Virus record (IMG/VR): IMGVR_UViG_3300020438_000001 | Location: 1-64,000 of that record | From: a virus | Reading direction: 5' to 3' (one strand) | Length of the DNA: 64,000 bases | In this document: positions 3,671 to 30,780 of the stretch, in pieces | Numbering within the stretch: position 1 is the first letter of the stretch | Layout: each line of letters begins with the position of its first letter | Position numbers and translations under genes: made by a program | Notes under the pieces: model-generated | What the model was told of the DNA's origin: nothing | What the model saw: the letters and a program-made list of their open reading frames with translations, nothing else | The model's database searches: none

Positions 3671-3672
3671 TT

Positions 3673-3867: not shown

Positions 3868-3873
3868 TTTTCT

Positions 3874-3881
3874 TATATTTG
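3874..3881 (+). promoter_or_regulatory. Candidate Bacteroidota-type -7 promoter box (TAnnTTTG)
   Basis: TATATTTG lies 21 nt upstream of the ATG at 3903. The TTG 'start' at 3879 in the ORF track falls inside this box. Confidence 0.35.
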
Positions 3882-3902
3882 TTAACTTTTAAAAGCCTGC
3901 CT

Positions 3903-4490: not shown

Positions 4491-4493
4491 ATT

Positions 4494-11743: not shown

Positions 11744-11763
11744 CCTCCATTGTGCCTTGGAGG
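11744..11763 (+). terminator. GC-rich hairpin; possible terminator or attenuator
   Basis: CCTCCA-ttgtgcct-TGGAGG, followed by a C/T-rich stretch rather than a pure T tract. The TTG start at 11757 in the ORF track lies inside the stem. Confidence 0.35.
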
Positions 11764-11789
11764 CTCGTCTCCTTACGCTTAATTCGCTT

Positions 11790-12287
11790 ATGAAACAATT
11801 AAAAATAGAAATTCCAAATTTTATTACACATGTTGCGAAAACGAACACAAAATATGTGAAAATAAACGGACAGAGATTATACACCGGTATGAATCATCAT
11901 TTAAGAGCTTTGATTGTAAGAAGAATGCATAGATATATCCAACAATGGATTCCAAACGGATTAGATATTCGAAAAATGGGACCATTAAAGATAAAGTTAG
12001 AATTGCATACTGTTATAAATCATGGAGACATTAGGATGTATAAAGGAGACTTGAGATGGCGTCCACCTAAAAAAGGATACACCCCTAAATGGGATGTAGA
12101 TAATTTATGGATATGGATAAAAAGCTTCCAAGACACTATAGTTGAAATGGGTTTAATAGACGACGATAATTGTGCTACGATACCACAAACAGGAGAGATA
12201 GAGTTTATTCCTGTTCCTACTATAGATGATAGAAAATTAGTATTTATTATAACACCTTATAAAAGGAAAAAAACGAAGAAAAAATGA
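11790..12287 (+). CDS. rusA: RusA-family Holliday junction resolvase
   Basis: DVDNLWIWIKSFQDTIVEMGLIDDDN matches the RusA catalytic D-x-DN...K...D...DD pattern. The start is moved from TTG 11757 to the in-frame ATG at 11790. Confidence 0.65.
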   Translation: MKQLKIEIPNFITHVAKTNTKYVKINGQRLYTGMNHHLRALIVRRMHRYIQQWIPNGLDIRKMGPLKIKLELHTVINHGDIRMYKGDLRWRPPKKGYTPKWDVDNLWIWIKSFQDTIVEMGLIDDDNCATIPQTGEIEFIPVPTIDDRKLVFIITPYKRKKTKKK

Positions 12288-13315
12288 AAATAGATCATTT
12301 AAGTCACTCTTCCCTTAGCGCTTTAAAAGTAAGCCCACAATATTTTATAAAATATAAAAACAAAGAACTAAACAAATCTAGTAAAGGATTTGAATTAGGA
12401 TCTGCTATTCACTGCTATATATTAGAACATGATAAGTTCGATAGTAGATATGTGGTAGCAGACATACCAGTTATTGGTGGTATGATGGGAACTTTTATTG
12501 AGACTATGGTTGAAAATGAGGCTTTTGTTGCATCTACATTATATGACAGTACAGAAGACACACCTTCTGAATTTGTTATACATAGTGTAGACGAATTGTA
12601 TGAGACTTGCTACTCAAAAGCAGGTTTTAAAACACCACTAGCTGGTGTCATAAAAAAGCTAGAAAAAGAAGAAAATAAAAATTACTTAGAGTTCTTAAGA
12701 AAATCTAAAGGCAAAGAAGTTTTATCGTCAGAAGATTATGTAATAATAGAACAATGCGCTGCTAGTGTCGCGGGACATGCTGTAGCAAGTAATATTTGTA
12801 ATACCTCAGAGTTAAATAATGCTGAGGCTGAGAAGGAACTTTCTTGGACTTATAAGGATTATCCTTATTTAATTAAATCCATTATTGATAATTTAATACT
12901 TAACAAAGAAAATAAGTTAATTACAATAGTAGATCTTAAAACCACCGCTAAATCTGTATATAACTTTATGGGAGCTTATAGTTCTTATGGATATTATAGA
13001 CAGATGGCAATTTATAAAGAAGCTGTTAATTGGTATCTTAGTGAATTGGGTGAAGATCCGCTAGAATATGATATAAAGTCATATATTGTAGTTGTTCAAA
13101 CGACTGGACTTTGTGAGTGTGTGGTATATGAACCAGATAGCTTCGATTTATCTATAGCCATTGATGAATTCGAAAATTTGCTAGAAAGGTTTAAATGGCA
13201 TCAAGACCACAACCGTTGGGATTACCCAATGGAGTATTATAGTAATAATGGTGTAATTAAAATCAAATTGTCAGATGATAAAATCTCTCGAATCAGAGAA
13301 AATTTTGAAGACTAA
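12284..13315 (+). CDS. RecB/Cas4-family PD-(D/E)XK exonuclease
   Basis: GSAIHCYILE (motif I), ITIVDLKTT (D-x-K motif) and RQMAIYKEA (QxxxY). Confidence 0.7.
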   Translation: MKIDHLSHSSLSALKVSPQYFIKYKNKELNKSSKGFELGSAIHCYILEHDKFDSRYVVADIPVIGGMMGTFIETMVENEAFVASTLYDSTEDTPSEFVIHSVDELYETCYSKAGFKTPLAGVIKKLEKEENKNYLEFLRKSKGKEVLSSEDYVIIEQCAASVAGHAVASNICNTSELNNAEAEKELSWTYKDYPYLIKSIIDNLILNKENKLITIVDLKTTAKSVYNFMGAYSSYGYYRQMAIYKEAVNWYLSELGEDPLEYDIKSYIVVVQTTGLCECVVYEPDSFDLSIAIDEFENLLERFKWHQDHNRWDYPMEYYSNNGVIKIKLSDDKISRIRENFED

Positions 13316-14217: not shown

Positions 14218-17200
14218 CTATTTTAAATCAAACCAGCTAAGCTTATCTTCAGGTTTCGTGTACCATTCCTTACCTGGTAAGATGTTATGGAATCGTTTTA
14301 ATATTTTTGGATCATCTTTCTTATACCTTCCTGCATCTCTTTTATATCTTTCGTAGTCTCCTCCAGTCATTAATGATGATCCGTCACTCATTAACTGACT
14401 AATAAATTTCCAATATGCTTCAATAGTAGTCATGTTTGCTGCAGGTGTTCTTAATATCTCAAAGAATGATGAGGTAGTATAGAAGCCCATTTCAGCTTGT
14501 ACTCTTTTAACGTTGTAGAGCATCTGCCAATCAAGCGCGGTCATATTTGCCGATCCGTCTTCGTCGTCTGGGTCATATCCAAATCCTAGTGAACTTCCTA
14601 ATAGTGTTAGCATAAAGTATCCTACACTTTCACCTAAAGCTCTTCTAATATTCTGTTGCTCAAACTCTTCTAATTTTTTCCACTGCTGTGGTAGAGTTTG
14701 GAATCGCATAGCCATCACTTCTTTCTTTATTCTATTCATAAACTTAAGCGCCGTAACATAATTACCTTCAGTAAATGATTGTAGTCTTTCATTATATTCA
14801 GGCCCTCTAAACTTAGAGTCTTTATTATAAAATAATTTCTCTGCGCCTTGGAATCTACGAAGCATTCCTGGACGTAACCACTTACGGAACTGCATTGCCC
14901 ATCTACCCACTGCATATTGTTGTAAAGCATTTCTGTCTTTAGTATTATATATACCATGGATACGTTGATAAGCCGCAGCTGCTCTTTCAGCAAATAATAT
15001 TCTATCTGTATCACTAAACTGCTCTGCCACTTCAGAATCTAATTCAAGACGACCATCTACTACTGAATATGCATCATATAAATTTACTTCACCTTTAGAT
15101 GTTTTAAATTTAGTATTCAACATCTGAGCAACAGCCATTTGGCTTTGTATTGCATGCTCTCCTAATGACATCATAAAGAATAATGCTGAAGCATTAGTTC
15201 TTAAGCCTAGTTTTCTATGCTCTAATCTATTTCCATATTCATCAAAATGTTGTTGGAAATCAAATAATTCATTTATCATTCCTAATTTCGAACTAGGTTG
15301 TCTAGACATTACATCTTTAGTTAACCCTCCAATACTTGCTGCATAAATCCCAGTAGCTTTTAAGTAATTTCCTACACCGTAGTGCTGATTAGCATACCCT
15401 TCAATAAAACTCATCATTTCACCGAACGTTGCATTAGATAAACCGGCGTGTTTATTCAGTGCCAAGACACGGAAACTTCCTGCCTGTAAGAATGCATCTA
15501 GAGATTGTGCTATATCTATCTCTTTACCCATAATAGTTACTGCTCCCATATCTTTTTTACGTTTACCGTATACTTGCATATCAAAGTAGTCACTTAATCT
15601 AGCATAAGCTCTTGAGTCTTCTCCGGCTACAGTAATATCTTTTCCTATCTGATCTTTCTTAGCTATACCAGATGATAGCTTAGTAACTCTTCTTGTTTTT
15701 ATTAGCTCTTTACCTACTTCAAGTACATCAAGTATCTCTGACATTTCTTTAAAGTTGTTTGCCATAGTAAAGAACATTTTTAAACCAGAACCTAGATCAT
15801 ATGATAAGTCTTCTGGACTTAATTGTCCTTCTTGATTACCAATAGCTCGTGAATAATGTACAGGTACAAAATCTAATGGGTTACCCGCAGCATCTACATA
15901 CTCTCCATAAGAAACATTATCTTCATGTTTTGTAAATGTTTCAGTCCACATTTCTTTAGCTGCATCCTTTAACCTTGTAGGGAACTTTCCTTTTTTCTCT
16001 AAAACTTTCTCCGCAGCTGTAGCTCTTAATGATGGTAATTGAGCTCCTTTTCTATATTGAGTTGGTAAGAGTTTTTGAGCATACATGTAATTTTCTACAT
16101 AGAATTCATAAAACACCCTTCTCGGATCTTCCTTACTCATGTTTGCTATATCTTTAAACTTCTGACTCTGATAATCTTTTGCTTGATTTTCTCTGTAAAA
16201 CTCTTGCCATTCTTCTTTGCTATTACTAAAGTTTTCACTATCCATAAACTCTTGCTTTAACTCTCTCCATCTAACTTCTTGCGCTGTAACAACGTTTCCT
16301 GTATAATTTCCATCAGTGTCTTGTTCTAACATAAAGTCATAAACTTCTCTGTTATTATATAAGTTTACACCATTATCAAACTGATACTTTTCAAGATCCT
16401 TCATAATTTTCATAAGACTTTTCGTAGTCTTAGTACCATACATTAATTCCTGAGTGGCCTGATTTACTTTACCTCTTTGTAATACAATAAGTTTATCCAT
16501 TGTAGCTAGCTCAGTTTGCGTTGAATCTCCTAAAGAGTCTAACCATCTAGCCATAAATGTTATATCTCGACCTGCAGTTAATAATTCTGCTTCTAATTTC
16601 TCTACAGTTACATTAGGATTAGTACTTAATTTAGCTAAAGCTTCTGCTATTAAAGGTCTTCCAAGGGCTTTATACTCTTCATATACTAAATTTTTCTTTG
16701 CAATAGCAGGCATTACATATTTCTCGATCATATTTTCGAAACCAGACTCTACTAACATAGGAGCCATCAATGTAATTTCTTCTAGACTATCATAAGATTT
16801 TACAAACTGATATATTTGATTTAAATTCTTTGGAGTAACTGCATTGTTTCTTACTAGCTCTTTTAATCTACCATGTGCAGCATTTATATCTCTTATTGCA
16901 CGTTTAGTAAATGTAATCAATCCTTCCTTTTCCCCTATTTCATCTAATTCATTATATAACTCTTGTAATTTATCTGAATATTCTTTATTATTAGATTTTT
17001 TATAGAAATCAATCTTTCTTAATATTTGATTTTTAGCGTTTTCAAATACACGGGCTACTGCGTCTTGTTCTTTTTCTATCTTTTTATTTGCCGCATCAAA
17101 CTCAGGGGATATATAACTAATAGCGCTTTTAATTACTTTCTTGCTAATAGGTTTCATATTGTTTAACTTATTTATCACCGGAGTGTTAGAAGTTGCAAGC

Positions 17201-20200
17201 CCAATATTATCAAATGTTATATTTCCATCTATATCCATAGTTACATCTGCTTCTAATGGTACTATATTTATTTCATCTATTGTAATTCCTTTTTCTTCTA
17301 TTATATGTTTATAGAAAGAGAGTTGTAATCTATATTTATTAAGTAAAGTATTAGGTATAGATGCAAGAGCTCCTTTAAATGCAGGTAAAGATTGTTCTAT
17401 ATTTCCAAATTTACCTCTCATTTTTGTTTTAAAGTCATGTATAATTTTTCTACCAGTAGGAGTAATCTCAATAATATCTACTGAACCTGCTAATAGATCT
17501 GATTTATCTGCTACTTTAACTTCTGAGTATAATGTACTTCCATCATTTATCTTAGCTTCTACCCATGCTTTTAAATTAGGTAACGCTTTTTTAAATGCTC
17601 CTCGGTGCTCTTCAGGAACCGCAGCTAAAGCAACTTCATCTGTTTGTTGTTGTACAAGCTGTTCCATTACGTTATGCAAACCAGTTCCCATGTCATCTCT
17701 TAAGAAATCCCACAACTTCTGTACTTTATTTGCCGTGTTAAACACATTACCTTCTTTTCTATTATTAGCTGCTACTTTCTCTGCCATTTCTTGTTGATTA
17801 AATGGATCCTGGAATATCTCAAGTAATCTACTTACTCTGTTCATTTTTACACCGTCTTGAACATAATAGTTATCCTGCTCAGTAGGCGCCATAATCATGT
17901 TACTTTCCCCAATAAGCTGATTCATAGCATCTTTTTGTGAGTAGTTTTTTAAATAAGGTATTTTAGAAGCAGCTAATGCCGTACCTCTTTTAAGTAACTG
18001 CGCTGCTAATCCTGTAATGTTCTGAGTTTGTAATGCATAGTATTTATTTATACCGATGTTTTCTATGCTAAGTCCTCCCGGATTTACACCAGATGTTATT
18101 GCTACTGCTGCAGGTCCTAATACTTCAGATAATTGTGCAGATAAATCATTAGCAGCTGTATTGCCTCCTCTAAAGAAACGTTTAATAGATTCCCATAAGT
18201 TTCTAAGTGTATTCATTAATCCAGATCCACGTACAAACTCAGGTTCTATTCCTAACTCTTGTCCTACAATATATCTACTAAGAACTTTCCCGGCGGCTTC
18301 TTTAATGAACTGCTCGTCTGTAGTATACACTCCCTCATATTCTTTTAGTACATCTTGATAAAGTTTTGTTTGGCTAACTAAATCAAATAGCCTCGTCTTA
18401 AGCGGGCTCTGATCCATCATCTCTATGTAGAAATGGCCTGCTTCTTCTGGTAATGTATACCTATCTCTGCTATTTTGTATTTGTACAACTTTATTTGCCA
18501 TGTCTGCAACACCTATAGCATCAAGGCCTAATTTTTCTTTAAGATTATCATATTTTTCTACTGGTATATTAAAGTGTTCTAATAACCAAGTTTCTAATCT
18601 AGCATCTAAATCTGCTAATATACTTTCTTTAACCACTGGAGATAGTTGCGGCATAATATCATTAATACTTGAAGTACTTCCAGGGTTCTCTTCTTCTGTA
18701 ATATCAGTAATTGTAGGATTAAGTTGTTTCGATGGAGCTGGGTTAAGTACTTTATTTCTTGGATGTACACTCTCTAACATTAAAGTCTCTCCTGCCATTT
18801 CTACATATTTAAACCTTTCACCTAAAGGTTGTATCTCTTCATATATAGCTCCTGTTTTAGAATCTCTTACATGCTTATATAATCTAAACTTTCCTTCATT
18901 AAAAGATTTAAAGTATGATACATATTCATCTACTAGAGGATCCACTGAAGGAACTACTAGATTATTATTAGCATCTTCATGTACAAAGTATTCATTTTGA
19001 GTCATATTTAATGACTTTCTCATATTATCACTAGTTGATAAATTTTTACTGTCTACAGTTTTTAATAAATTACGGTCTGTAAACATGTTTCTTATAATCT
19101 GTTCCGCGGCACCTTCATCAAAATAATTAGCATACCCCATACCTCTTTCTTCTTTTCTAAAGAAGTCTGTTAGTCCTGAAGCACTCCAGTATGACATAGG
19201 TACTAAATCTACAAATGAGTTAGGTCCTAACATAAATCCTGATGTAAGTACAGAGTATCGAACTAAGTCTTGAGCTAAGTTTCTTACTTCTGCTCTTGGG
19301 TCCATAAGTAATTCAGCCCATCTATCTGTTATTTTATTCTTTTGGGCTGGGCTTAATTTTGTTGTATTATTAAATGCTATAGTTTGTAAAAATTGAGCTC
19401 TTCCAGTATTCTCTGCAGAGTTATATAACATACCTAAGAATGGATCATTCTGTAGATTGTACTTCTTTTTGATTCTAATTACATCATTAAGAAGAGATGT
19501 AGGTTTGTTAAACAACTTCTTCTGCAATGCATCTCTTTTATTATATAATAAATCTCCAAATGGTGATGTACGTTTAGTTAATGAATAAAATAATCCAAAA
19601 CTATTTATCACATCAGACAAGTCTGGCGTCATTATACCATCTCTTTGCCCTGTTAATTGTGCAATATTTGTTTTTAATAAGCTAAACCCGGGCCCATTGA
19701 ATGGTACAAACTGTCCTGTAAATTGTTCAGCTGCTTTTATTCCATAATTTATGTATGCATCTATCCTATCAGTAGAGTTTCCAATATTAATAGCTGAAGA
19801 TTCACTGTTTAAATATGTTACAGTATTATTAAACTGTTCTAAAAAGCTAAGCCTACTAAAGTTTTTCAGTGTTTCTGGACTCACAATCATGTTAAACTTC
19901 GATAAATCTCTACCCGCTTGTAAGTATCTTAACATGTCATATAGAATCTGTGTCTGTCTTTTAGCTAATTCTTTATCTGCTAACGTTCCTCCTAAATCCT
20001 TTTTCAAAGAAGCTGCGCTAGGTGTATGTATTGTTTGCTCTCTAAGTAATTCAAATGTATCCAACATCTCATACTTCTTAGCTATATCTTTTGCAATAGC
20101 ATAGTCTGTCTTTTCTTCTTGTAAATTTCTTTCTGCAAAAAATTCTCTTAGTATAGGCTGATTAATAAAATCTAACGCTACACCTTCATTACTAAATCCT

Positions 20201-23200
20201 ATTCTATTTAATAAAGATACAACTCCATTATTATAAACAGTTACTCCGGCTCTACCAATTCTTTGATACTTAGCATTATCTAATGCTTCGTTTTGGTTTT
20301 CAGAAATATAACTTGATATAAATTGTCCATTAAATCCTAGTACTCTACTTAAATTTGTGTGTGACCTCGACCCCTCAGCCTGAATATTAACAGCAAAATC
20401 ATCTTTTAATTTTACATCCATGTCTTGTGCTACTGCGTGACCTGTAGAATGTAATGAAAATAATCCAATCAGTAAAGCCGCATCTTTGTTAATCTTTTCT
20501 AAGTACATGTCAGCAGCTGTAGAGTTGATATTAAGATCAGATAAGTTAGGTACAATTCCTAATTTCTCATACTCTGCTAGTTTTAATGTATATGTATTAC
20601 TATCTAGTGGATCCATTAACTCCTTAACGTGATGCTTAGATGTAATAATAGATTGTCTTATATCGAACAATGCATTTGTTAATGCTTTATCAGATACTCC
20701 AGTAAAATCTTTTTTCGTTTCATATATATCTGCATTAAATGCACTAATCTTTGTTTTAGCTTTAGATATTTCTGGGAACATAAGATACATTTTATCAATA
20801 TCAAAGTCACTACCCATCATTGTAGTTATTTCAGCCGGTAATATAATTACACCTCCCATGTTTTCTGGTAAAACTTTAGTAATCTTAAGAGATAACATAG
20901 AGTTTTTACCCTGTGTAGGAATACGGTAGCCCATAATCTCAAATAATTGCTGGTCTACATTAGAGTCTACAGTATCTCCTGGCTTTAATCCAAGCTTAGC
21001 TGCTAACTCATAAGGTAATGCTACTTCAGCATACACTCCTCCATTAGCATGTTGTCGTATTTCAAGTTGAGAATCTAGTTCGTATCCAAATTCAGCTACC
21101 TGAACCACACTCATACCATTAAATCTTTGCTTAAGAACTCTATTCTTAAATAGGGATAGTAAAATACTTTCAAACCTTTTTGCAAATGGCGGGAAAGATA
21201 GTGGCGCTTCAAATCCATAAGCGTTAACATCGTCTACTAGCTTTTCTATTTTCATAGCTAAGTAATAGTTGTCTGGTAAATCTCTTTCTTCTAGGCTATT
21301 AATAGCTACATCTTTAACTTTTAATAAGAAATCTAATTGAGCTTTATTTCTAGTTTCTAGGTCTGTTGATTGTATAGCCTGCTGATAAGAATCCCATCCA
21401 AGTTCATTGGTTAATGCATCATGAGACCTTTTTATACGCTCTGCATATATTTCATTATATAGATCTTTTATTTGCTTACCATTATACTTACCTCCAAATA
21501 CATTATAATTATAACTATCTAAAATATTTGATAGTATTAGTTTTGCCATCTGTGTTCCGTCTAATGGTGCTTTTGTTTTTGTTTCTATTACTTGAGGAGA
21601 TCTTAAATTTTTAGTTTCTAATATCTCTACATTTAATCCTTCTAGATTAGAAATATTTTCTATACCTGATGCTCCTACTTTAAGGGCAGACTCAAAGTTT
21701 GCCATATCAATAGGTTGTAACCCTTTATATTTACCGACTGCTTCCATACGTTGTCTTAGATTATTTAAGGATACTTGTTCTTCAGTACCTTTAAACATTT
21801 CAGTAAACTCTCTTATTAAAGGAATCGTCGAATGCTTTATTTGTTCAAACGTTATAGTTTGATTGCCCTGAGAATCTGTTATAAGTCTTTCTCCAAAGTA
21901 ATATGTCTTTCTAGGATTTAATAATAATTTTTTAGATGCTGGGTCTCCCATTAATCCTTTTACCCAATATTTATTATACGCATCAGTATGCTCATCAGTC
22001 CAGGTTCCATCTGACTCCATTAAATTTTTATGGAATTCTAAAGTAGTAAACCCTTGTGCATCAGTCTTGTTAATTTTTGTATATGCATTAGCAATTCTTT
22101 TTGCTTCCTTTGTTTCTGTGCCTGCATTTTCTAATATTTTTTGGAACCTTGCTGTATCACCATCTTTAAATATATCTTCTAAAATAGTGTGAGTGAATTT
22201 AGGCTTAAGTCCATACTGCTTCTGCTCATTCCATACCGGCTCAAGTCCAGGAGTAATTGATTGATAAGCTCTTTTTCCTGCTTCTATAATTGGATTACCT
22301 GTGTCATCAGTTTTATAGTATGCTAAATCAGGACCAAATGTAGTTTGCATATAAGTTTTATATACTAAATCATTAACCGCAAATCTAGTTATAGCTGTAG
22401 TTATATCATTGTTTATTATATCTCCACGTAATGCAGACATAGGCAAAGACTCATTAGTTATAGAAGATCCAGTTACATTAATTGCTCCTGCTTCTGCAAA
22501 TGCTGTTATAGTTTGCTGAACATTATCTTGTAAGTACTTTAATAACCCTTCTTTTAATCCAACTCTAAGCTCTTCAATCTGAGCCATACTAGAAGCATTA
22601 ACACCTTTTCTTATAAGCCCTCCTTGATTAAATATTTTATACTTAGGGTCATTTAGTTGTGGGAATTGTATAAATCTAGTTCCATTACCTTGTTGGTCTC
22701 CTGGTTTATTTTTATAGTGTACATTCTGTCTTTGTTCTGATAATGCAATAGGATTAAATCCTGATAATTGATCATTAGTCTTAGCTATTCTAGCCATTTC
22801 ACCAAGGGCTGCAGGCATTAATAGTTCAACTCCAGTTTCATACCAACCATCTAGTCCAGTCTTACCGGATTTCCATAAACCTAATGCAGCATTTTCAGGC
22901 CCTATCTTTGGTAAGCTTAAGAATTTCCATTGTGTTTTATCTCCTTTAGTACCTGTATTAAATTCTCCATACTTAAATCCATTATTATAGAACATTGCAA
23001 ATCTAGATATTGCAGATAGTTTCTGATTCATAGTATCATATGCATTAGATCTACTAGCTGCATTCTTTTCTTTAACAACATCAAATGTACTTAAGGCAAA
23101 ATTAGCTCTTACTTCAGGATTATTAAATAATAAATCTAAGATTAAATGTCTGTATTTTTCTGTAGGACTATAGAACACATCATTATATCTCGATAAAATA

Positions 23201-26200
23201 GCAGCTTCATAAGTTTCTTCCGAGCTTAGTTCTAATGTAGTCTTAGAATCATATGTATTTAAATTAATTGCATAGATAGGTTTTTTGTTACCGCTCATAA
23301 ATGATGCGATGTAATTGTCTATAGTATAATCTACAGCAAGTTCTGCTAGATTTTTAAGCGCTGCAGACTCCATATTACCAGCCATATATGGGCTTATCCC
23401 ACTTTCTAATGCTCTTAGTATTCCGGCTCCGAATGAATTAGTACCTCTCATGTACTGTTCTAGGTCTATTGCTCTTACCGTTTCATCATTATAAATACCT
23501 TCCCATACTACATTATCGAATTTAATACCTACCATATCTAGGGTATCCTTCATGATTCTTAAGTACTGCCCTTTATGTTCTTGGTTTGTAAGATCTCCCT
23601 GGTTTTTTAATAAAGGTAATAGTTTATCATAAGATTGTCTTATTTTTTCTACTTCAGTTAAATCTATTAAATCATTTTCTCCATTTTCTTCTTGGAATAC
23701 TGGACTTTCTAATCTATTAGAATTCCATATATTAATAATTTGATTCTTTAATCCATTTCTATTTGTAAGGATTGTTCTAGTTTCTCCGTTCTCATCTAGT
23801 AATAGAGTTTTAAACTGGATATTTTGTTTATTGAAATGCGCAACAAATTTATTCTGCCATTGTGGAGATGATGCTGCGTATACTGTTAATACTTCACTAG
23901 CCATAGGGTGGCCTTTTTCTGCTAGCTTTTCTAATCTATTTAATACATTACCGCCAGGTGTATTAGCTAACGCTACAGACAGATATGCATACACCTCATC
24001 AAATGGTAAATATCTATTAGACCCTAAAAACTTTCCTTTTTCGGATTTAATAAAACCTAATTCAATTTTAATATCTTTAGATAATGTAGGCTTAGTTGAG
24101 CTATGATAATAATTAACTCCATGTATACGCTCTTTACTTTGCTCTTCATTTAAAGCTACTTGTTCATCTAAAGATACATCATCATTAGCTTCAATCTCAG
24201 TAGTTGTTTCTTCTACAAACGGAACAGTCTCTGTATCAATTTTACCATCTCGCTTTATTTTATACTTTATACCAAATTGATTGTCTAATGCTTTAACTGC
24301 TAAGCTTTCAAACCCGGGGCTAACTAAATTATCTAAATCATCTGTTCTATCTTTCCAGTTATTTTCTTGGGCTACTAACATAAAGTTATTACCTATTTTT
24401 CTAAGTGTCTCATTCTCAGATTGTTGTAATCTTTCTCCTGTTTCTATAAAACCTTGTTGTAACTTAGAGTAAGTAGATTTCATAAGTTTAGGGTCTTTCA
24501 TTACCTCTAACCACTTATCTCCATACTCTTCTTGTAATTTATTTTTTAGATTATAGTTCATAACCCCTACAATTTCATCAACTTGTTCTACTGTAAATCC
24601 AGTTTTCTCACGGAGTAAAGGTGCTTGTACTTGAGACTGTAATGCTGCATCTTCTTGAGGTAATATAAAATCTCTGTTAGTAATATCTCTAAACAAAGTT
24701 TCTATTGCAGAACTCATTCCTAACATATTCTTTATGTAATAAAGTAGTTCTTTAAAGAATTTTTTAATTGTAGAACCTAATCCTGACTCGTCTTCTGTAA
24801 GCCTATAGTTCATAAACTCTTCAGCTAAACGAGTTTCAATATCCGCTTCTTGTCCGTATTTATTTATAGCCTCCATCTCTATAGAAGTTTTTTCTTCAGG
24901 TGTTAGATGTAGATCATATATACGACGGAAAGCTTCCCAATACATAGTTCCTGTAGGAGCATTCTCTGCAACAGTAACCATGCCTCTATGATAATAACCA
25001 AAAGCTTGTCTACCATCTTTTAATGTTATATATTTTAATCTGTTTAGAACAGTAAGACCCTCTTCTCCAAATCTAGATAGAAACCACTGCTTTTCTATAT
25101 CGCTTATTAAATCAACAGCTCCTTCTAAATCTTCATATTTTCTAAACTTTATATCTATATCTTCATCAAGTTTATTTGGATCAATCTCTTCTATTGTATC
25201 AGTTGTAGTATCAGTAATCTCTGTACTACTTTCGTCTCCAAACACATCAGTAACTCTTTGTACTTCAGGCTCGTCTACAAGTATATCAACATTTTGACCT
25301 AACACTTCTCGAGCTTCTTCTTGCTCTGCTTCTATAATAATTTCCGGTGTACCTATAACTTCTACACCTTCATTTATAAAGTCTGGCATTTGATTTTTAA
25401 CTGGAGTTCCTTCTTCTATATATATCTTAGCATGATGAAACTTCTGAGAACTTCCTCCTGGAACATCAGTTGTAACAATACCCATTTCAGATAAATAAGT
25501 ATTATAATCTTTAAAAGATTCATTTTGTAGTGGACTAAAATATTCTTGCTTAGAATTAATTAAATGTTTTTGAACATTAAATACTTTTGTTGCTAAGTAA
25601 TCTCTAATGATTGTTGGGATCTGACCGAACTGAGAAATGTCTTCGCTTCTTCTAAGCTCATGAGATATTACATTTCCTTGAGAATCATATTCTTTAAATA
25701 AGAAAGGCTTACCATCCATAGCATCTTGGAAATTATTTCTCATCTTATCTCCAAGACCCTCCATATTATACTGTATACCAATTACTCTATTTGTTCCTGG
25801 AATAGGTATTTTAACTACTAGATTATCCATAGCTAATATACGTTTACTATTGGCCTGTTTAAATGTTTGATCTTGTCTAGCTCCTACTGGAGTATATACA
25901 ATTTTATTTACTAACTCTCTTTTCTCTTTAGGAGCTACTCCTTGCATTTTAATAATCTCTATTACTTTATCTATAGCTTTTTCTGTAAGTAATGAAGTCT
26001 CTGCTCTTACTGGAACCATTTGTCCGTTAGCAGACTCTAACGCTATATAGACTCTTCCTTGCTCAATATAAGATGTAGGAGAAACACTTACATCACTGTT
26101 ATTATATCTAACAGTTTGATCTTGCCCTACACCTATAATCATGTCACCGCTAATAGGACGTTGTATAGATTTACCATCTTTTTTAATATTAATTACATAC

Positions 26201-29200
26201 CCAGAAGTCTTTCCTGCTATCGTAGCTGTAACATCTTTAGTTCCCATTGCAGCAATCCTTGTTCTAAATGCACGGCTTTGTGCAGTTTTTTTACTTAGAA
26301 CAGATAAAACTTTACTCGGGTCAGATGCTAATCTTACAGTAACTACCACATCGCCTGATTGGCTAGATGGATAGTATTTATATTCTGGTTCAATTCGTAA
26401 GATGACTTTTGTACCTACTCCTAAATCTGGACTATTTAATAGTTTAAAATCAAATAAATCTTTTTCTTTTACGGCATCAGGAACTACTATTAATACTTGT
26501 TGCTCTCCTTTAACTTGTTTCTTTTGGTAATCCCATCCTTGCCAAGGTGCCATTTTACTTTCTTCTACTATTCTTCCTCCTTCGTAAATAGGTTTATCGT
26601 TTACTAATAATGGCGGATTATAATATACAAGTTGTACTCTATCATTACTTTCATCTTCTAATTGCTGCAACTCAGTTGGAGTAAGTTCTGTAATATCTTT
26701 AAAATAAAAACCTCCTTTCTTTCCCGGTGCAGTCCACATTGGTATAAGCATACCATCTTTATCTTTAGCCTGAGTAAATTTACCATTAGGCCCTACTACA
26801 CTTATTACTTGTGGTTGAAAGAATTCAAGGTAAGCTTTTTGTAAAGCAGGTTGAGTCTGTGTAGTAGCTCCAGGTACAGTAACTATAGATCCCTCTTCTT
26901 CTTTGACTGTTTTTCCTGATTGCGGATCCTCAGTAGCTTCGATAATAGCATTTTGCTCTTCGATAGCAGAGACCGCATCTGGGTTTTCGACTGTTGGTAT
27001 TTCTCCTTCATTAGTTATTTCTTCGATTTGACCCTGATTAACTTCTATTGATTCTCCGAGGACATCAATAAGCTCTCCTTGTTCTGTTATTTCTAACTTT
27101 GATTGGGAGGCGTTTGGCCCGGCTTCGCTCGTTCTATTTTCTGCATTGAGTTCAGCGGTAATCCTTTCCTCAGTTTTCGCAGGGTCTTCACTCTGCTCCA
27201 CTTGTCCTTCGCTAAAAGCGTTTTCTGTAAGTCTAGGGGCAGCAGCCGGTTTAGTTGAGTTAGCTTCATTGTATTTATTTTTAATATTATTAATTGTTTC
27301 TTGTATAGCATTTGATAACTGTATATTAGCTTGTCTTCTTACAGCTACAGACTCCGTCCCTTCTACAAGGGCTCCATCAATATCTTTAACAACTAAAGAG
27401 CCATCAAACAGATCTGTCTCATAAGTGACTATATATTCGTTACCGTTTTGTTCTATTATTAAGAAATCATTATTAACTAGATTTCTAAACGCAGTTCTTT
27501 TAACCGCTTCTAAGGTTTCAATAACATCTGCAATCTCATAAGTAACCAAAGGATTTGTAAATGTAACTTTTTTACCATTCCATTTAGTTAATGTAACTGA
27601 TACAACACTACCACTTGCGTCATATTCAATAGCATCTACTGGATTATCTGATAGATTATTAAAGTATTCATTATTAATGTTGAATGTTTTACCATCTGCA
27701 TTTATTTCTATGCCTAGTAAATCATCTCTTCTAAGTAACATATCTAGAGACCCTAATGTAGGCCCCTGTGTAAATTGCCCTAAAGCATTTCTATATCTTG
27801 AATCATGAGCTGATGGACTTTCATCTACAATATATTCTGTAAGAGTAGTTCCATCTCGGAATATTAGTTCATTTGTTTCAGCATCTCTATAAATAGATCC
27901 AACTTTATTCCCCCAAACAACTCCTACAGTTTGTATTACTTCATCAAACAATTCAGAGATAGGCATGTTAATACTCTCAGCATCACCATAAAGATAAGCA
28001 GTACTTCTTCCTTGAGTCTCTCTCCACTCCTGTTCCATCTTAGCACGCTTTGCCGCATCTCTTCTGCTAAGTTTTGGATTAAAAAGTTCTTTCTTAAGCT
28101 CTTCTATTTTACGGCCTATCTCATCATTAATCTCTTTTCTAGCTTGCTCTGCTAAGTTTTTTAAATTAGTTTTATTTTCTTCATAGGATTTTTGAATTGA
28201 TTGTTCTTCTTTAGCGTTTCTAAAAGCCTCTATAAATTCATTATAAAATTCTTGTATTTTTATATTGTCTGGATACTGAGCAAAAAATTCTGTAACTTGC
28301 TCTTCAGTCATTTCAGGATTCTTTTTTACAGCCTCCTTAAAATCCTCTATAATACCATTGTTTTCAGCTTCTTCTTTAATACGTTCTTTACCTACTACTG
28401 CTATATCGCCTAATGCTTCTGCTTCTGAACTATTAGAATAATAAGGATTCTCCTCTTTTAATAAATCTTGTAATCTATTCCAAGCTGCATCTCTATTCCA
28501 AGTAAATAATTGCTTTTTATTTTGCAGTGTAACAAGACTACCTTTATCAACTTTACTTAAGAAGTCATTCTCTGCTCTTAGGTCTTTATCTTCATATGTC
28601 TCTTCAGAAGCTTTCTTTAATACATTTTCTTCTGTTTCATTTCTAGCAATTAGATCCTGTAAGTTATTTATATATTGATTAAAGTTTTCTGCTAATGCTT
28701 TAGACTTTTCTTTCTCTTCTTTTGTTGCGGTTGTATCGTTTGCTACATCTTCTGCTCTTTCTTTTGCAAGCTCAAATTTACTAAGCTGATCTTGTAATGA
28801 TCTTTTCTTTAATTGCAGTTCATGTCTTTGTTTTGTATTAGGCCCAATATTATATTGCTCAACATTATAAATATCATCATTAATATTTTGTTCTATCTGT
28901 TGATCTATTTCTTTAATGAGCTTATCATACATAGTAACACTCATATCTAACTCTGTAAGAGCTCCCGCAACACCTGCTCCCCATTTAGAACTTGTTGCTC
29001 TATTTCTATAATTATTAAATTTCTTTTCAGTAGTTCTTAAGATGTTTATTAAATCTGCTTTTCTTGTAGCTAATTCAGACTCAGATTGTCCTGTTTCTTT
29101 TAGCATATCAGTAAATGCGGGATCATTCATCATCTCTTCTAGCTGATCCATATTTCCGGCTTGTGCTGAATTAAGCGCTAGCTGTAATGCCATAAGCTCA

Positions 29201-30780
29201 TCTTGCTCTCTTGCTCCTTGTACGTCACCATTTTCTATAGCCTTTCTTCTTTTTTCTAAAGATTTTTGTATAAGATCGGCTCTTCCTCCTATCTCTTTCA
29301 GTCTAGCCTGATCTAAAGCTGCTTGAGCTTTTCTATTTTTTATTGTTGCTACACCACTAAAAATACCCCCTCCTATAGTACCCATTGTAGTAGCCGCCCA
29401 AAAATCTCCTCTAGATGCATAATCATTCATACGATTAACCCAGCTTGACCCAGACATAAACTCTCTGTTTTCATAGCCAGTATTACCCATCATTATATCT
29501 CCAAGGCGTATACCTTCTTGCATACTCATAAAGTTAATCTGCTCTTCTATACCTTCTGAGTAAGCCCATAATGCTGGAGGTATAACAGGTTTAATATAAT
29601 TGTAAGCTTTGCCTATTCTTGTCTTAGGAACTTTAGGCGCTTTAAGTGTAGCATTTTGAGCTTTTTGTACTTTAGTTGAATGTCTACCAAATATGTTTGC
29701 TCCTGGACGAGTACTAAATTTCATTGGACCAAACCATAATCCTGCTTGAAGTATATCAAATCCAACATTACTCCAGTTTAGACTATAAGAATTAGATGCA
29801 GCCTGTCCTGCAACATGATTTGCTATTTTATCTTTTGCATAAGGATCGCCAGCTTTAATACCTAACTCTTTTAAAATAGCTTCACCATTTGAAGAGTTTA
29901 TAAAATTATCAAAATTCTTAGGATCTTGTAAGTAGTCCAAATTCTTTTGGAATGAATGATCCCATGTTTCTCCAGCCTCTCTAAAGTTTTCCATATGCCT
30001 CATAGAAATACCCATAGCCATAGAGTTTCTTACGAAGTTAGTAGCTCTACCAGCAGTCAATGCTCCTTGTAGTTTACGTGAAGCATTTGCTACCATCGCA
30101 CTTCTAGAACCTTTACCCGCTCCTGCTAAATATCTCATCCCTCTACCCATATAAGCAGCTCCTCTAGCTGCAACCATACCCGGAATAAGTAAGGATAGTG
30201 TAGATGCAACAGACACTCCATTTGATGCCCACCATCCTGAATCATAAGGGTCCCATCCTCTACCTGGATTTTCCTGGTATATAGGTGTAAACTCTTTTGT
30301 AGCTTCTCTTATATCTCCACCTAAATCAGTTAACCAATTTTGAAAGTCACTTTCCCAAGGCATTTTACCCATAAACATACCACCAATAGCATCTCCTAAT
30401 GCGCCAAAACCTTCTAATGTTCCACCTCCAACCTCACCTATAATAGCTTGATTTAAAAATCCTCCAAGCTGTTGCATACCTGATTGTTCGCTGGCTCTTC
30501 TACTATTTATATTATGTATATTTTCTATATCCCAATTAACATCAGGCATAGCATTATAGTCCGCCTCAAATACAGTAGGTGTTTGAAACCTTTGATTTGA
30601 GTTTGCTTGCGTATATCTAATAACATCTAATGAGTTTTCAATATCTAAAGGATACTGTACAGCATCTTCATTGCTTGGTAATTGTGGACCGCTTTCATCT
30701 TGTGGTAAAGCAGTAATTGGATTTAATGTAGTATTCATCTTTGCTATATCCAAAGATGAGCCTTTTTTAGGTTCTCCCAT
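14218..30780 (-). CDS. Giant (5520 aa) putative virion-delivered polyvalent protein containing a beta-prime-like RNAP barrel and a RecB-like nuclease
   Basis: Uninterrupted 16.5-kb ORF. It has a Gly-rich hydrophobic N-terminal region, a long charged helical region, acidic linkers, the RNAP DPBB motifs (aa 3211-3337) and PD-(D/E)XK motifs (aa 4303-4495). Confidence 0.85.
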   Translation of the reverse strand: MGEPKKGSSLDIAKMNTTLNPITALPQDESGPQLPSNEDAVQYPLDIENSLDVIRYTQANSNQRFQTPTVFEADYNAMPDVNWDIENIHNINSRRASEQSGMQQLGGFLNQAIIGEVGGGTLEGFGALGDAIGGMFMGKMPWESDFQNWLTDLGGDIREATKEFTPIYQENPGRGWDPYDSGWWASNGVSVASTLSLLIPGMVAARGAAYMGRGMRYLAGAGKGSRSAMVANASRKLQGALTAGRATNFVRNSMAMGISMRHMENFREAGETWDHSFQKNLDYLQDPKNFDNFINSSNGEAILKELGIKAGDPYAKDKIANHVAGQAASNSYSLNWSNVGFDILQAGLWFGPMKFSTRPGANIFGRHSTKVQKAQNATLKAPKVPKTRIGKAYNYIKPVIPPALWAYSEGIEEQINFMSMQEGIRLGDIMMGNTGYENREFMSGSSWVNRMNDYASRGDFWAATTMGTIGGGIFSGVATIKNRKAQAALDQARLKEIGGRADLIQKSLEKRRKAIENGDVQGAREQDELMALQLALNSAQAGNMDQLEEMMNDPAFTDMLKETGQSESELATRKADLINILRTTEKKFNNYRNRATSSKWGAGVAGALTELDMSVTMYDKLIKEIDQQIEQNINDDIYNVEQYNIGPNTKQRHELQLKKRSLQDQLSKFELAKERAEDVANDTTATKEEKEKSKALAENFNQYINNLQDLIARNETEENVLKKASEETYEDKDLRAENDFLSKVDKGSLVTLQNKKQLFTWNRDAAWNRLQDLLKEENPYYSNSSEAEALGDIAVVGKERIKEEAENNGIIEDFKEAVKKNPEMTEEQVTEFFAQYPDNIKIQEFYNEFIEAFRNAKEEQSIQKSYEENKTNLKNLAEQARKEINDEIGRKIEELKKELFNPKLSRRDAAKRAKMEQEWRETQGRSTAYLYGDAESINMPISELFDEVIQTVGVVWGNKVGSIYRDAETNELIFRDGTTLTEYIVDESPSAHDSRYRNALGQFTQGPTLGSLDMLLRRDDLLGIEINADGKTFNINNEYFNNLSDNPVDAIEYDASGSVVSVTLTKWNGKKVTFTNPLVTYEIADVIETLEAVKRTAFRNLVNNDFLIIEQNGNEYIVTYETDLFDGSLVVKDIDGALVEGTESVAVRRQANIQLSNAIQETINNIKNKYNEANSTKPAAAPRLTENAFSEGQVEQSEDPAKTEERITAELNAENRTSEAGPNASQSKLEITEQGELIDVLGESIEVNQGQIEEITNEGEIPTVENPDAVSAIEEQNAIIEATEDPQSGKTVKEEEGSIVTVPGATTQTQPALQKAYLEFFQPQVISVVGPNGKFTQAKDKDGMLIPMWTAPGKKGGFYFKDITELTPTELQQLEDESNDRVQLVYYNPPLLVNDKPIYEGGRIVEESKMAPWQGWDYQKKQVKGEQQVLIVVPDAVKEKDLFDFKLLNSPDLGVGTKVILRIEPEYKYYPSSQSGDVVVTVRLASDPSKVLSVLSKKTAQSRAFRTRIAAMGTKDVTATIAGKTSGYVINIKKDGKSIQRPISGDMIIGVGQDQTVRYNNSDVSVSPTSYIEQGRVYIALESANGQMVPVRAETSLLTEKAIDKVIEIIKMQGVAPKEKRELVNKIVYTPVGARQDQTFKQANSKRILAMDNLVVKIPIPGTNRVIGIQYNMEGLGDKMRNNFQDAMDGKPFLFKEYDSQGNVISHELRRSEDISQFGQIPTIIRDYLATKVFNVQKHLINSKQEYFSPLQNESFKDYNTYLSEMGIVTTDVPGGSSQKFHHAKIYIEEGTPVKNQMPDFINEGVEVIGTPEIIIEAEQEEAREVLGQNVDILVDEPEVQRVTDVFGDESSTEITDTTTDTIEEIDPNKLDEDIDIKFRKYEDLEGAVDLISDIEKQWFLSRFGEEGLTVLNRLKYITLKDGRQAFGYYHRGMVTVAENAPTGTMYWEAFRRIYDLHLTPEEKTSIEMEAINKYGQEADIETRLAEEFMNYRLTEDESGLGSTIKKFFKELLYYIKNMLGMSSAIETLFRDITNRDFILPQEDAALQSQVQAPLLREKTGFTVEQVDEIVGVMNYNLKNKLQEEYGDKWLEVMKDPKLMKSTYSKLQQGFIETGERLQQSENETLRKIGNNFMLVAQENNWKDRTDDLDNLVSPGFESLAVKALDNQFGIKYKIKRDGKIDTETVPFVEETTTEIEANDDVSLDEQVALNEEQSKERIHGVNYYHSSTKPTLSKDIKIELGFIKSEKGKFLGSNRYLPFDEVYAYLSVALANTPGGNVLNRLEKLAEKGHPMASEVLTVYAASSPQWQNKFVAHFNKQNIQFKTLLLDENGETRTILTNRNGLKNQIINIWNSNRLESPVFQEENGENDLIDLTEVEKIRQSYDKLLPLLKNQGDLTNQEHKGQYLRIMKDTLDMVGIKFDNVVWEGIYNDETVRAIDLEQYMRGTNSFGAGILRALESGISPYMAGNMESAALKNLAELAVDYTIDNYIASFMSGNKKPIYAINLNTYDSKTTLELSSEETYEAAILSRYNDVFYSPTEKYRHLILDLLFNNPEVRANFALSTFDVVKEKNAASRSNAYDTMNQKLSAISRFAMFYNNGFKYGEFNTGTKGDKTQWKFLSLPKIGPENAALGLWKSGKTGLDGWYETGVELLMPAALGEMARIAKTNDQLSGFNPIALSEQRQNVHYKNKPGDQQGNGTRFIQFPQLNDPKYKIFNQGGLIRKGVNASSMAQIEELRVGLKEGLLKYLQDNVQQTITAFAEAGAINVTGSSITNESLPMSALRGDIINNDITTAITRFAVNDLVYKTYMQTTFGPDLAYYKTDDTGNPIIEAGKRAYQSITPGLEPVWNEQKQYGLKPKFTHTILEDIFKDGDTARFQKILENAGTETKEAKRIANAYTKINKTDAQGFTTLEFHKNLMESDGTWTDEHTDAYNKYWVKGLMGDPASKKLLLNPRKTYYFGERLITDSQGNQTITFEQIKHSTIPLIREFTEMFKGTEEQVSLNNLRQRMEAVGKYKGLQPIDMANFESALKVGASGIENISNLEGLNVEILETKNLRSPQVIETKTKAPLDGTQMAKLILSNILDSYNYNVFGGKYNGKQIKDLYNEIYAERIKRSHDALTNELGWDSYQQAIQSTDLETRNKAQLDFLLKVKDVAINSLEERDLPDNYYLAMKIEKLVDDVNAYGFEAPLSFPPFAKRFESILLSLFKNRVLKQRFNGMSVVQVAEFGYELDSQLEIRQHANGGVYAEVALPYELAAKLGLKPGDTVDSNVDQQLFEIMGYRIPTQGKNSMLSLKITKVLPENMGGVIILPAEITTMMGSDFDIDKMYLMFPEISKAKTKISAFNADIYETKKDFTGVSDKALTNALFDIRQSIITSKHHVKELMDPLDSNTYTLKLAEYEKLGIVPNLSDLNINSTAADMYLEKINKDAALLIGLFSLHSTGHAVAQDMDVKLKDDFAVNIQAEGSRSHTNLSRVLGFNGQFISSYISENQNEALDNAKYQRIGRAGVTVYNNGVVSLLNRIGFSNEGVALDFINQPILREFFAERNLQEEKTDYAIAKDIAKKYEMLDTFELLREQTIHTPSAASLKKDLGGTLADKELAKRQTQILYDMLRYLQAGRDLSKFNMIVSPETLKNFSRLSFLEQFNNTVTYLNSESSAINIGNSTDRIDAYINYGIKAAEQFTGQFVPFNGPGFSLLKTNIAQLTGQRDGIMTPDLSDVINSFGLFYSLTKRTSPFGDLLYNKRDALQKKLFNKPTSLLNDVIRIKKKYNLQNDPFLGMLYNSAENTGRAQFLQTIAFNNTTKLSPAQKNKITDRWAELLMDPRAEVRNLAQDLVRYSVLTSGFMLGPNSFVDLVPMSYWSASGLTDFFRKEERGMGYANYFDEGAAEQIIRNMFTDRNLLKTVDSKNLSTSDNMRKSLNMTQNEYFVHEDANNNLVVPSVDPLVDEYVSYFKSFNEGKFRLYKHVRDSKTGAIYEEIQPLGERFKYVEMAGETLMLESVHPRNKVLNPAPSKQLNPTITDITEEENPGSTSSINDIMPQLSPVVKESILADLDARLETWLLEHFNIPVEKYDNLKEKLGLDAIGVADMANKVVQIQNSRDRYTLPEEAGHFYIEMMDQSPLKTRLFDLVSQTKLYQDVLKEYEGVYTTDEQFIKEAAGKVLSRYIVGQELGIEPEFVRGSGLMNTLRNLWESIKRFFRGGNTAANDLSAQLSEVLGPAAVAITSGVNPGGLSIENIGINKYYALQTQNITGLAAQLLKRGTALAASKIPYLKNYSQKDAMNQLIGESNMIMAPTEQDNYYVQDGVKMNRVSRLLEIFQDPFNQQEMAEKVAANNRKEGNVFNTANKVQKLWDFLRDDMGTGLHNVMEQLVQQQTDEVALAAVPEEHRGAFKKALPNLKAWVEAKINDGSTLYSEVKVADKSDLLAGSVDIIEITPTGRKIIHDFKTKMRGKFGNIEQSLPAFKGALASIPNTLLNKYRLQLSFYKHIIEEKGITIDEINIVPLEADVTMDIDGNITFDNIGLATSNTPVINKLNNMKPISKKVIKSAISYISPEFDAANKKIEKEQDAVARVFENAKNQILRKIDFYKKSNNKEYSDKLQELYNELDEIGEKEGLITFTKRAIRDINAAHGRLKELVRNNAVTPKNLNQIYQFVKSYDSLEEITLMAPMLVESGFENMIEKYVMPAIAKKNLVYEEYKALGRPLIAEALAKLSTNPNVTVEKLEAELLTAGRDITFMARWLDSLGDSTQTELATMDKLIVLQRGKVNQATQELMYGTKTTKSLMKIMKDLEKYQFDNGVNLYNNREVYDFMLEQDTDGNYTGNVVTAQEVRWRELKQEFMDSENFSNSKEEWQEFYRENQAKDYQSQKFKDIANMSKEDPRRVFYEFYVENYMYAQKLLPTQYRKGAQLPSLRATAAEKVLEKKGKFPTRLKDAAKEMWTETFTKHEDNVSYGEYVDAAGNPLDFVPVHYSRAIGNQEGQLSPEDLSYDLGSGLKMFFTMANNFKEMSEILDVLEVGKELIKTRRVTKLSSGIAKKDQIGKDITVAGEDSRAYARLSDYFDMQVYGKRKKDMGAVTIMGKEIDIAQSLDAFLQAGSFRVLALNKHAGLSNATFGEMMSFIEGYANQHYGVGNYLKATGIYAASIGGLTKDVMSRQPSSKLGMINELFDFQQHFDEYGNRLEHRKLGLRTNASALFFMMSLGEHAIQSQMAVAQMLNTKFKTSKGEVNLYDAYSVVDGRLELDSEVAEQFSDTDRILFAERAAAAYQRIHGIYNTKDRNALQQYAVGRWAMQFRKWLRPGMLRRFQGAEKLFYNKDSKFRGPEYNERLQSFTEGNYVTALKFMNRIKKEVMAMRFQTLPQQWKKLEEFEQQNIRRALGESVGYFMLTLLGSSLGFGYDPDDEDGSANMTALDWQMLYNVKRVQAEMGFYTTSSFFEILRTPAANMTTIEAYWKFISQLMSDGSSLMTGGDYERYKRDAGRYKKDDPKILKRFHNILPGKEWYTKPEDKLSWFDLK
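17290..17875 (-). other. RecB-family PD-(D/E)XK nuclease domain inside the 5520-aa ORF (aa about 4303-4495)
   Basis: MGTGLHNVMEQL, AGSVDIIEI (Asp 4435, nt 17476-17478), IIHDFKTK (D-x-K at aa 4449-4451, nt 17428-17436) and RLQLSFYKH (QxxxY). Confidence 0.7.
20770..21150 (-). other. Beta-prime-type double-psi beta-barrel (RNAP catalytic) segment inside the 5520-aa ORF (aa 3211-3337)
   Basis: FKNRVLKQRFNGMSVVQV, then VALPYELAAKLGL, then YRIPTQGKNSML, then MMGSDFDIDKMYLMFPE. These are collinear with E. coli beta-prime GKRVDYSGRSVI, GLPKKMALELF, NRAPTLHRLG and NADFDGDQMAVHVPL. DFDID is encoded at nt 20794-20808. Confidence 0.75.

Follow-up and report, generated by a model that had tools for sequence, protein, structure and literature searches.

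A candidate virion-delivered RecB/MGME1-type nuclease domain in the RNA polymerase polyprotein of a divergent crassvirus

A PD-(D/E)XK nuclease domain lies within a giant protein encoded by the DNA analysed here, a stretch of 64,000 nucleotides (nt) from IMG/VR virus record IMGVR_UViG_3300020438_000001 (positions 1 to 64,000, hereafter the window). The protein is the product of a single unbroken open reading frame (ORF) of 5520 amino acids (aa) on the minus strand (14218..30780), in which three crassvirus cargo modules are fused, namely a gp47-like module, an RNA polymerase (RNAP) and a gp49-like module, as mapped by BLASTP. The domain belongs to the RecB/MGME1 type, occupies aa 4286-4525 of the gp49-like module (17206..17925, minus strand) and was delimited with a hidden Markov model and a structural model. 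Its identity as a RecB-type PD-(D/E)XK nuclease is supported by profile, fold, residue conservation and selection. The reading that we favour, with a probability of roughly 0.55, sees in the domain a metal-dependent DNA nuclease that is catalytically competent, would be ejected as part of the virion RNAP polyprotein and would likely act in early DNA-end processing.

Motifs, extent and conservation of the domain

A preliminary description of this DNA had recognised four ordered RecB motifs in the giant protein, and all four are present where it placed them, with D4435, D4449 and K4451 correctly numbered. Motif I is the helix GTGLHNVME (G4365, H4369 and E4373; 17662..17688, minus strand like the other motifs of this ORF), part of the string GTGLHNVMEQL at aa 4365-4375 (17656-17688). 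Motif II, AGSVD (G4432 and D4435; 17476..17490), lies on core strand beta-2 and opens the string AGSVDIIEI (aa 4431-4439; 17464-17490), while motif III, DFKT (D4449 and K4451; 17425..17436), lies on core strand beta-3 within IIHDFKTK (aa 4446-4453; 17422-17445). Motif IV is the QxxxY helix YRLQLSFY (Y4483, Q4486 and Y4490; 17311..17334), which overlaps the string RLQLSFYKH (aa 4484-4492; 17305-17331). The catalytic set, composed of H4369, E4420, D4435, D4449-x-K4451 and Q4486-xxx-Y4490, is complete. These motifs stand in frame some 1040-1165 aa C-terminal of the RNAP motif DFDID, in keeping with the distance of about 1000 aa first reported for a nuclease and an RNAP motif sharing one protein; the span first proposed for the domain, aa 4303-4495, had the right location and a slightly narrow extent. 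A second copy of the nuclease was sought with the A1 profile (hmmsearch) in the gp47-like part of the protein, the site that it occupies in phage crAss001, and the giant protein is matched only at aa 4286-4515.

In an alignment of 153 homologous domains, the residues G4365, H4369, G4432, D4435, D4449, K4451, Q4486 and Y4490 are each kept in 146-152 sequences (H4369 in 146, Y4490 in 147, G4365 and Q4486 in 148, D4435 in 150, and D4449 and K4451 in 152 each), and Y4483 is kept in 128; among the sequences of the A1 profile the four motifs are invariant. Two full-length orthologues of the giant ORF, P0003 (5542 aa) and P0004 (5731 aa), are 52% and 42% identical to it over the whole protein and 64% and 48% identical over the nuclease core, a conservation comparable to that of the RNAP catalytic region. 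The ratio of nonsynonymous to synonymous substitution (dN/dS), calculated against the close IMG/VR relative L006, which is 90% identical in aa sequence along 3685 residues, amounts to 0.13 in the domain and to 0.10 overall. At the level of sequence comparison, the catalytic set is under purifying selection, and nuclease activity has likely been retained.

Family and fold

Searched against PHROG, aa 4251-4567 (317 aa) match phrog_298, annotated 'exonuclease', with an E-value of 5.6e-16, and two further exonuclease families. An exhaustive phmmer search over 1.84 billion representatives, with a cut-off of E<=1e-3, recovers 239 relatives of the domain, and about 120 of the 150 best are stand-alone proteins of 200-300 aa of the RecB-like exonuclease kind; unlike this search, a word-indexed protein search returned only two fragments. 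The Pfam family PDDEXK_1 is matched individually by 46 of 52 aligned homologues, and no NCBIfam family model matches the domain. Among proteins of solved structure, phmmer with the single domain found nothing meaningful in the PDB sequences, whereas the homologue profile matches human MGME1 at E 1.2e-7 and, more weakly, Cas4 SSO0001, AdnB, RecB and EXO5. Taken together, the matches of the domain greatly exceed what chance would give.

Structure prediction leads to the same group of enzymes. The AlphaFold2 model of aa 4286-4525, built on the homologue alignment, has a mean confidence (pLDDT) of 87.2 and a predicted template modelling score (pTM) of 0.84, and it shows the alpha-beta-beta-beta-alpha-beta topology of the RecB-type PD-(D/E)XK fold (helix 65-91, strands 131-140, 145-154 and 160-166, helix 194-210 and strand 218-223 of the model). 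Motif I is carried by the long helix, E4420, D4435 and D4449-x-K4451 by three successive strands, and QxxxY by the helix that follows. The best Foldseek matches in the PDB are almost all RecB-type PD-(D/E)XK enzymes, with MGME1, EXO5, AddA, AdnA, Cas4, RecB and Dna2 at the top, and MGME1 is matched with a probability of 1.0 and a template modelling (TM) score of 0.42-0.51. Among predicted viral structures (BFVD), Foldseek finds PD-(D/E)XK proteins together with several crAss-like giant proteins, and the UniProt-derived names in that database already call such proteins 'PD-(D/E)XK endonuclease-like domain-containing'. Profile and fold evidence, the two kinds for which the preliminary description had called, bear out the nuclease assignment, the single formal weak point being that the domain on its own stays below the gathering score of Pfam PDDEXK_1.

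MGME1 is a free-standing, mitochondrial exonuclease of single-stranded DNA (ssDNA) that serves the maintenance of mitochondrial DNA. It is the best match by both profile and fold (PDB 5zyw, 5zyu, 5zyt and 8xa9), shares the order of the motifs with the phage domain and, like it, has no iron-sulphur (Fe-S) cluster; the two are 12-15% identical and superpose with a root-mean-square deviation of 7-9 A. The closest family by profile is that of the stand-alone phage RecB-like/Cas4-family exonucleases (phrog_298, for instance the 'RecB-like exonuclease' of mycobacteriophages), which are about 25% identical in tblastn alignments. These are separate genes of replication or recombination modules and are expressed after infection, whereas the window's domain is embedded in what, by analogy, would be a virion protein.

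The preliminary description spoke of a 'RecB/Cas4-type' nuclease, and of this label the RecB half stands. Cas4 (TIGR00372; PDB 4ic1) has the RecB motifs in common with the domain, and PADLOC reports a weak match to DruK (E 0.0014) and one to Cas4 at E 0.04, the latter improving to 5.8e-6 for the stand-alone homologues, with all scores far under the family cut-off. Lacking cysteines altogether (none in aa 4200-4600), the domain is without the four conserved ones that bind the Fe-S cluster of Cas4, can hold no such cluster and is not a Cas4; it has no TIGR00372 match, no cas genes are found among the annotated ORFs of the window, and no CRISPR context is present there. A strict Cas4 identity is therefore rejected, and MGME1/RecB type is the better label.

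PD-(D/E)XK nucleases that travel in the virion as part of a viral RNA polymerase exist elsewhere, in influenza virus PA-N and at the N-terminus of the bunyavirus L protein, where they cut RNA for cap-snatching in eukaryotic hosts. Neither is among the fold or sequence matches of the domain in the PDB profile and Foldseek searches.

The giant polyprotein and its phage

The window belongs to a divergent member of the Crassvirales. It encodes a crassvirus muzzle protein (37588-43095; Pfam crAss_MUZ, E 1e-146), which is followed by two ORFs of cargo-protein size (1105 and 1131 aa) and then by the giant ORF. The sequence is just 23-27% identical to database crassviruses. A megablast search with the giant ORF found nothing among 50,697 phage records; the phage itself is thus missing from this set, and no record in it is close at the DNA level.

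The N-terminal module (aa ~84-2040; 24661..30531, minus strand) is related to crAss001 gp47 (E 1e-7; giant aa 1810-1992 with gp47 2021-2203) and to the N-terminal half of cr108_1 gp054, with which aa 84-260 and 1876-2039 align in BLASTP. The RNAP module (aa ~2563-3994; 18799..23094, minus strand) is homologous to the virion RNAP of phi14:2 (gp077, 'gp66' in the naming of Drobysheva et al.) and to crAss001 gp50, with BLASTP E-values of 5e-35 and 2e-34. It carries the catalytic motif DFDID at aa 3325-3329 (20794..20808, minus strand), the context of which, MGSDFD(I/V)DKMYLMFPE, is kept in P0003; its Pfam match to Rpb1 domain 2 is below threshold, and tblastn finds the RNAP region in 144 crAss-like records at 26-30% identity. 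The C-terminal module (aa ~4043-5479; 14344..18654, minus strand) is homologous to crAss001 gp49 (BLASTP E 5e-78), phi14:2 gp076, cr118_1 gp15, cr108_1 gp052 and cr4_1 gp27. The order of the three modules is the gene order gp078-gp077-gp076 of phi14:2.

Such fusions have been reported before. One huge polyprotein made up of the RNAP and two neighbouring proteins has been described in some phages (Drobysheva et al., bioRxiv 10.1101/2020.03.07.982082, citing Yutin 2018), and the window shares with it the module order gp65/gp47-like, RNAP, gp67/gp49-like, as well as orthologues that are virion proteins. Indeed, gp47, gp49 and gp50 of crAss001 were found in virions and are regarded as ejected cargo (PMC10172136), and gp076-078 of phi14:2 are annotated as structural from tandem mass spectrometry. 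As the orthologues of all three modules are cargo proteins verified by mass spectrometry in these two phages, the nuclease is, by analogy, most likely carried in the capsid and would leave it with the RNAP.

Yutin et al. (2021, PMC7886860) state that crAss-like phages encode at least one PDDEXK nuclease, often two or three, and describe a PDDEXK domain in the large proteins of their transcription block; a 2023 review (PMC10136315) repeats the statement and calls the function unclear. The giant protein resembles these block proteins in domain family, gene block and insertion site, which is that of cr4_1 gp27 and cr108_1 gp052; it differs from these examples in that its gp49-like carrier is fused in frame with the RNAP and a gp47-like module. 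An RNAP-nuclease fusion of this size, first described as unusual, is so for phages in general and, to judge from Yutin et al. and from Drobysheva et al., not for crAss-like phages. Both the nuclease domain and the three-protein fusion are already in the literature, and the novelty first claimed for them was overstated.

Insertion site and distribution among crassviruses

The gp49 protein of crAss001 aligns on both sides of the nuclease region, giant aa 4088-4255 with gp49 213-377 and giant aa 4558-5479 with gp49 367-1300. Since the ~300 residues in between are unmatched, the region is an insert relative to crAss001 gp49 (aa 4256-4557; 17110..18015, minus strand; BLASTP), and it holds the nuclease domain. 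The identical site is filled in cr4_1 gp27, a protein of 1803 aa that bears the annotation 'exonuclease', and likewise in cr108_1 gp052 and some 25 metagenomic proteins with lengths of 1400-1760 aa. The A1 profile matches cr4_1 gp27 at E 2e-17, cr108_1 gp052 at E 2e-12 and crAss001 gp47 at E 1e-12.

In crAss001, the related domain is thus found in gp47 rather than in gp49, at aa 1713-1864, with D, DxK and QxxxY kept and the motif I His replaced by Asp. This gp47-type copy occurs in 49 records by tblastn, including the PhiCrAssBcn isolates, DAC15/17 and IAS virus. No copy of this nuclease type was detected in the cargo-block proteins of phi14:2 or cr118_1. Because it is absent from the cargo of these two phages and is carried by another cargo protein in crAss001, the domain is accessory and stands outside the core RNAP mechanism. 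Among the cargo proteins associated with the RNAP it has either moved or been acquired repeatedly; when the crAss001 gp47 domain is scored against all relatives, embedded and stand-alone proteins score alike, and this comparison does not separate one capture from several.

The fusion is stable in the window's own clade. In seven of seven IMG/VR relatives, with domains 48-87% identical to that of the window, the nuclease lies in an unbroken frame that extends at least 3000 aa upstream, and in six of them this same frame contains the SDFDxD motif, L011 being without the exact string. In other metagenomic giant proteins, a DxDxD-like motif either precedes the nuclease (P0072) or follows it (P0110), a comparison made at the level of motifs only.

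Two observations concern the compared genomes themselves. The ORF of cr4_1 gp27 contains in-frame stops under the standard code, some of them inside the nuclease domain, which fits reports that certain crAss-like phages reassign stop codons. The RNAP frame of cr108_1 is broken exactly at DxDxD (L005 16750-17041), gp054 stopping at the position of giant aa 3325 and gp053 restarting at 3336 after a gap of 290 nt, and this break fits the intron or intein disruptions of Yutin et al. 2021.

Loss of the zincin site in the fused clade

Drobysheva et al. (bioRxiv 10.1101/2020.03.07.982082) proposed that the polyprotein is cleaved, possibly by a zincin-like protease in its first module. At the HExxH site of this module, crAss001 gp47 and cr118_1 have YHEAFH and cr108_1 has YHESFH (HE[AS]FH in all three), whereas the window has YWEAFR, with the degenerate motif WEAFR at aa 1948-1952 (24925..24939, minus strand). 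All relatives of the clade (L006-L012, P0003 and P0004) carry the same replacement, so that both metal-binding histidines are gone in exactly the clade in which the three cargo proteins are fused. Self-processing at this site would be unlikely here. If the zincin site is the processing protease, the clade cannot use WEAFR for this purpose, and the nuclease, encoded in one ORF with the RNAP, may therefore stay covalently tethered to it.

The stand-alone exonuclease and other genes of the window

The preliminary description counted a stand-alone exonuclease at 12284..13315 (plus strand) as a second member of the same family. The motifs that it quoted, GSAIHCYILE, IVDLKTT and RQMAIY, are present at aa 39-48, 215-221 and 239-244, and the window does encode two PD-(D/E)XK proteins; the two do not, however, belong to one family. 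The stand-alone protein is DUF3799/RecE-ExoVIII-like by Pfam (DUF3799, E 1e-17, above cut-off), PHROG (phrog_412 'exonuclease VIII', E 1.5e-32) and NCBIfam (ExoVIII nuclease region, E 4e-14), and the profile of the giant protein's domain gives one weak match to it, of about 25 residues over motifs II-III. As a RusA-like resolvase gene (11757-12287, plus strand) directly precedes it in the replication block and a Sak4-like annealing protein (5873-6544, plus strand) is encoded nearby in that block, it is predicted to be an ordinary recombination exonuclease. With RecE-like, Sak4-like and RusA-like genes in its replication block, the phage would not need the cargo nuclease for ordinary recombination. 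The same block encodes RIIA-like (8217-10679, plus strand, E 4e-65) and RIIB-like (10701-11711, plus strand, E 4e-42) proteins.

A third PD-(D/E)XK gene was suspected at 45002-46144 (minus strand, 380 aa) in the structural block, on the basis of its match to phrog_704 'DNA repair exonuclease' (E 2e-58), and was rejected, as Pfam shows an N-terminal NUMOD-like DNA-binding domain (E 6e-7) and a metallophosphatase, of the Mre11 type. The 1105-aa ORF that follows the muzzle gene (34216-37533, minus strand), in the position of cargo protein C1, matches a 42-position PHROG of unknown function at aa 127-160 (E 1e-16), the remainder being unmatched. A second giant ORF (48210-59243, minus strand, 3677 aa) lies among tail-fibre-like genes, has no PHROG match and has a G+C content of 0.35-0.39, slightly above that of most of the window.

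Proposed role and alternative explanations

The favoured reading can be put as a sequence of steps. The nuclease would travel in the capsid as part of the giant cargo protein, leave it partly unfolded together with the DNA or in front of it and, before any expression of phage genes, regain its fold in the host cytoplasm, where it would use bound Mg or Mn. It could then help to process linear DNA ends early on, at the site of entry, for example by resecting the incoming termini, this being the most tentative of the steps. The solved relatives MGME1, RecB, AddA, AdnA, Cas4, EXO5 and Dna2 act on DNA ends or ssDNA, and the sole free end at entry is that of the phage genome, which is why end processing is favoured; the runner-up, not far behind, is that it cuts the DNA of the host or of competitors. 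The preliminary description had likewise raised attack on host or defence DNA and processing of the genome ends as possible functions.

Several points weigh against this reading. The domain itself scores 17.6-18.7 bits with Pfam PDDEXK_1, the gathering score of which is 22, and Foldseek gives no E-value against the PDB better than 1.9e-3, a modest figure. Packaging of the giant protein is extrapolated from homologues that are 25-27% identical, the genome termini lie outside the window, and the results would fit the phage's own ends, host DNA or RNA as the substrate. The structural atlas of crAss001 (PMC10172136) does not contain the word nuclease, and a literature search found no paper that tests the activity or the role of a cargo-embedded nuclease.

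The domain could instead serve late, in the virion-producing cell, where the polyprotein would be made along with the late structural proteins and, as long as it is free in the cytoplasm, would degrade host DNA or trim replication or recombination intermediates before packaging, its presence in the capsid being incidental. The gene is indeed co-directional and contiguous with the structural and cargo block, and the cargo genes are late in crAss001 and middle or late in phi14:2 (review PMC10136315); moreover, Drobysheva et al. (bioRxiv 10.1101/2020.03.07.982082) proposed that the packaged RNAP is self-inhibited until ejection. However, the phage already has its RecE-like exonuclease and Mre11-like metallophosphatase for such tasks, and at both of its insertion sites the domain invariably lies within cargo proteins of the RNAP block, from which it can be argued that selection maintains co-delivery. 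We regard an exclusively late role as unlikely.

It is also conceivable that the nuclease prepares the template by resecting one strand at the entering end, thereby exposing the ssDNA that crAss-type virion RNAPs prefer. The RNAP gp66 of phi14:2 transcribes single-stranded or denatured DNA efficiently, its own native genome weakly and double-stranded M13 DNA not at all (bioRxiv 10.1101/2020.03.07.982082). Nuclease and RNAP share one ORF in all seven IMG/VR relatives of the clade, their covalent link may persist now that the zincin motif is destroyed, and the solved relatives are ssDNA or end-processing enzymes. Yet the ssDNA preference was measured in phi14:2, and no nuclease of this type is detectable in the cargo proteins of that phage, so that template preparation cannot be the general crassvirus mechanism. 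Template preparation is accordingly quite unlikely in our estimation, and its most specific form, in which a tethered nuclease would resect the entering end to supply the RNAP with ssDNA and so prime early transcription without promoter melting, seems more doubtful again.

A catalytically silent module, with a structural or DNA-binding function in the cargo protein, would account for the sub-threshold Pfam score of the domain and for the drift tolerated in crAss001 gp47, where Asp stands for the motif I His. This Asp could still bind metal, however, all metal-binding and catalytic residues are kept in the window and in nearly all of the 153 homologues, and the low dN/dS speaks against a silent domain, which makes this explanation very improbable. 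The remaining idea, that the domain is a selfish element, either an intein or a once free-standing homing endonuclease taken up in frame, is rejected as hardly credible: Yutin et al. (PMC7886860) describe a wealth of inteins and introns in crAss-like genomes, crAss001 gp49 has no counterpart of the inserted domain and the RNAP ORF of cr108_1 is broken at DxDxD, but aa 4251-4567 have no Hint/intein, LAGLIDADG, HNH or GIY-YIG match (Pfam, PHROG, NCBIfam), the domain's relatives are RecB/Cas4/MGME1-type exonucleases, and the insert, its site being common to proteins ~23-30% identical (cr4_1 gp27, cr108_1 gp052 and the ~25 metagenomic ones), is old and has co-diverged with its host protein.

Significance for crassvirus biology

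In the human gut no phages are more abundant than the crassviruses, which are common in other habitats too. Because the domain and the fusion have both been published, the present finding sharpens a question that is already being asked and does not raise a new one. What it adds is a clean example in a divergent crassvirus lineage, the observation that the nuclease insert occupies different cargo proteins in different crassviruses, and the loss of the zincin HExxH site in the fully fused clade. If the reading of early delivery is true, an intact and strongly conserved DNA nuclease that enters the cell before gene expression would be one of the few phage nucleases supplied ready-made, and it could bear on genome-end processing, on host takeover and on the preparation of a template for an RNAP that prefers ssDNA.

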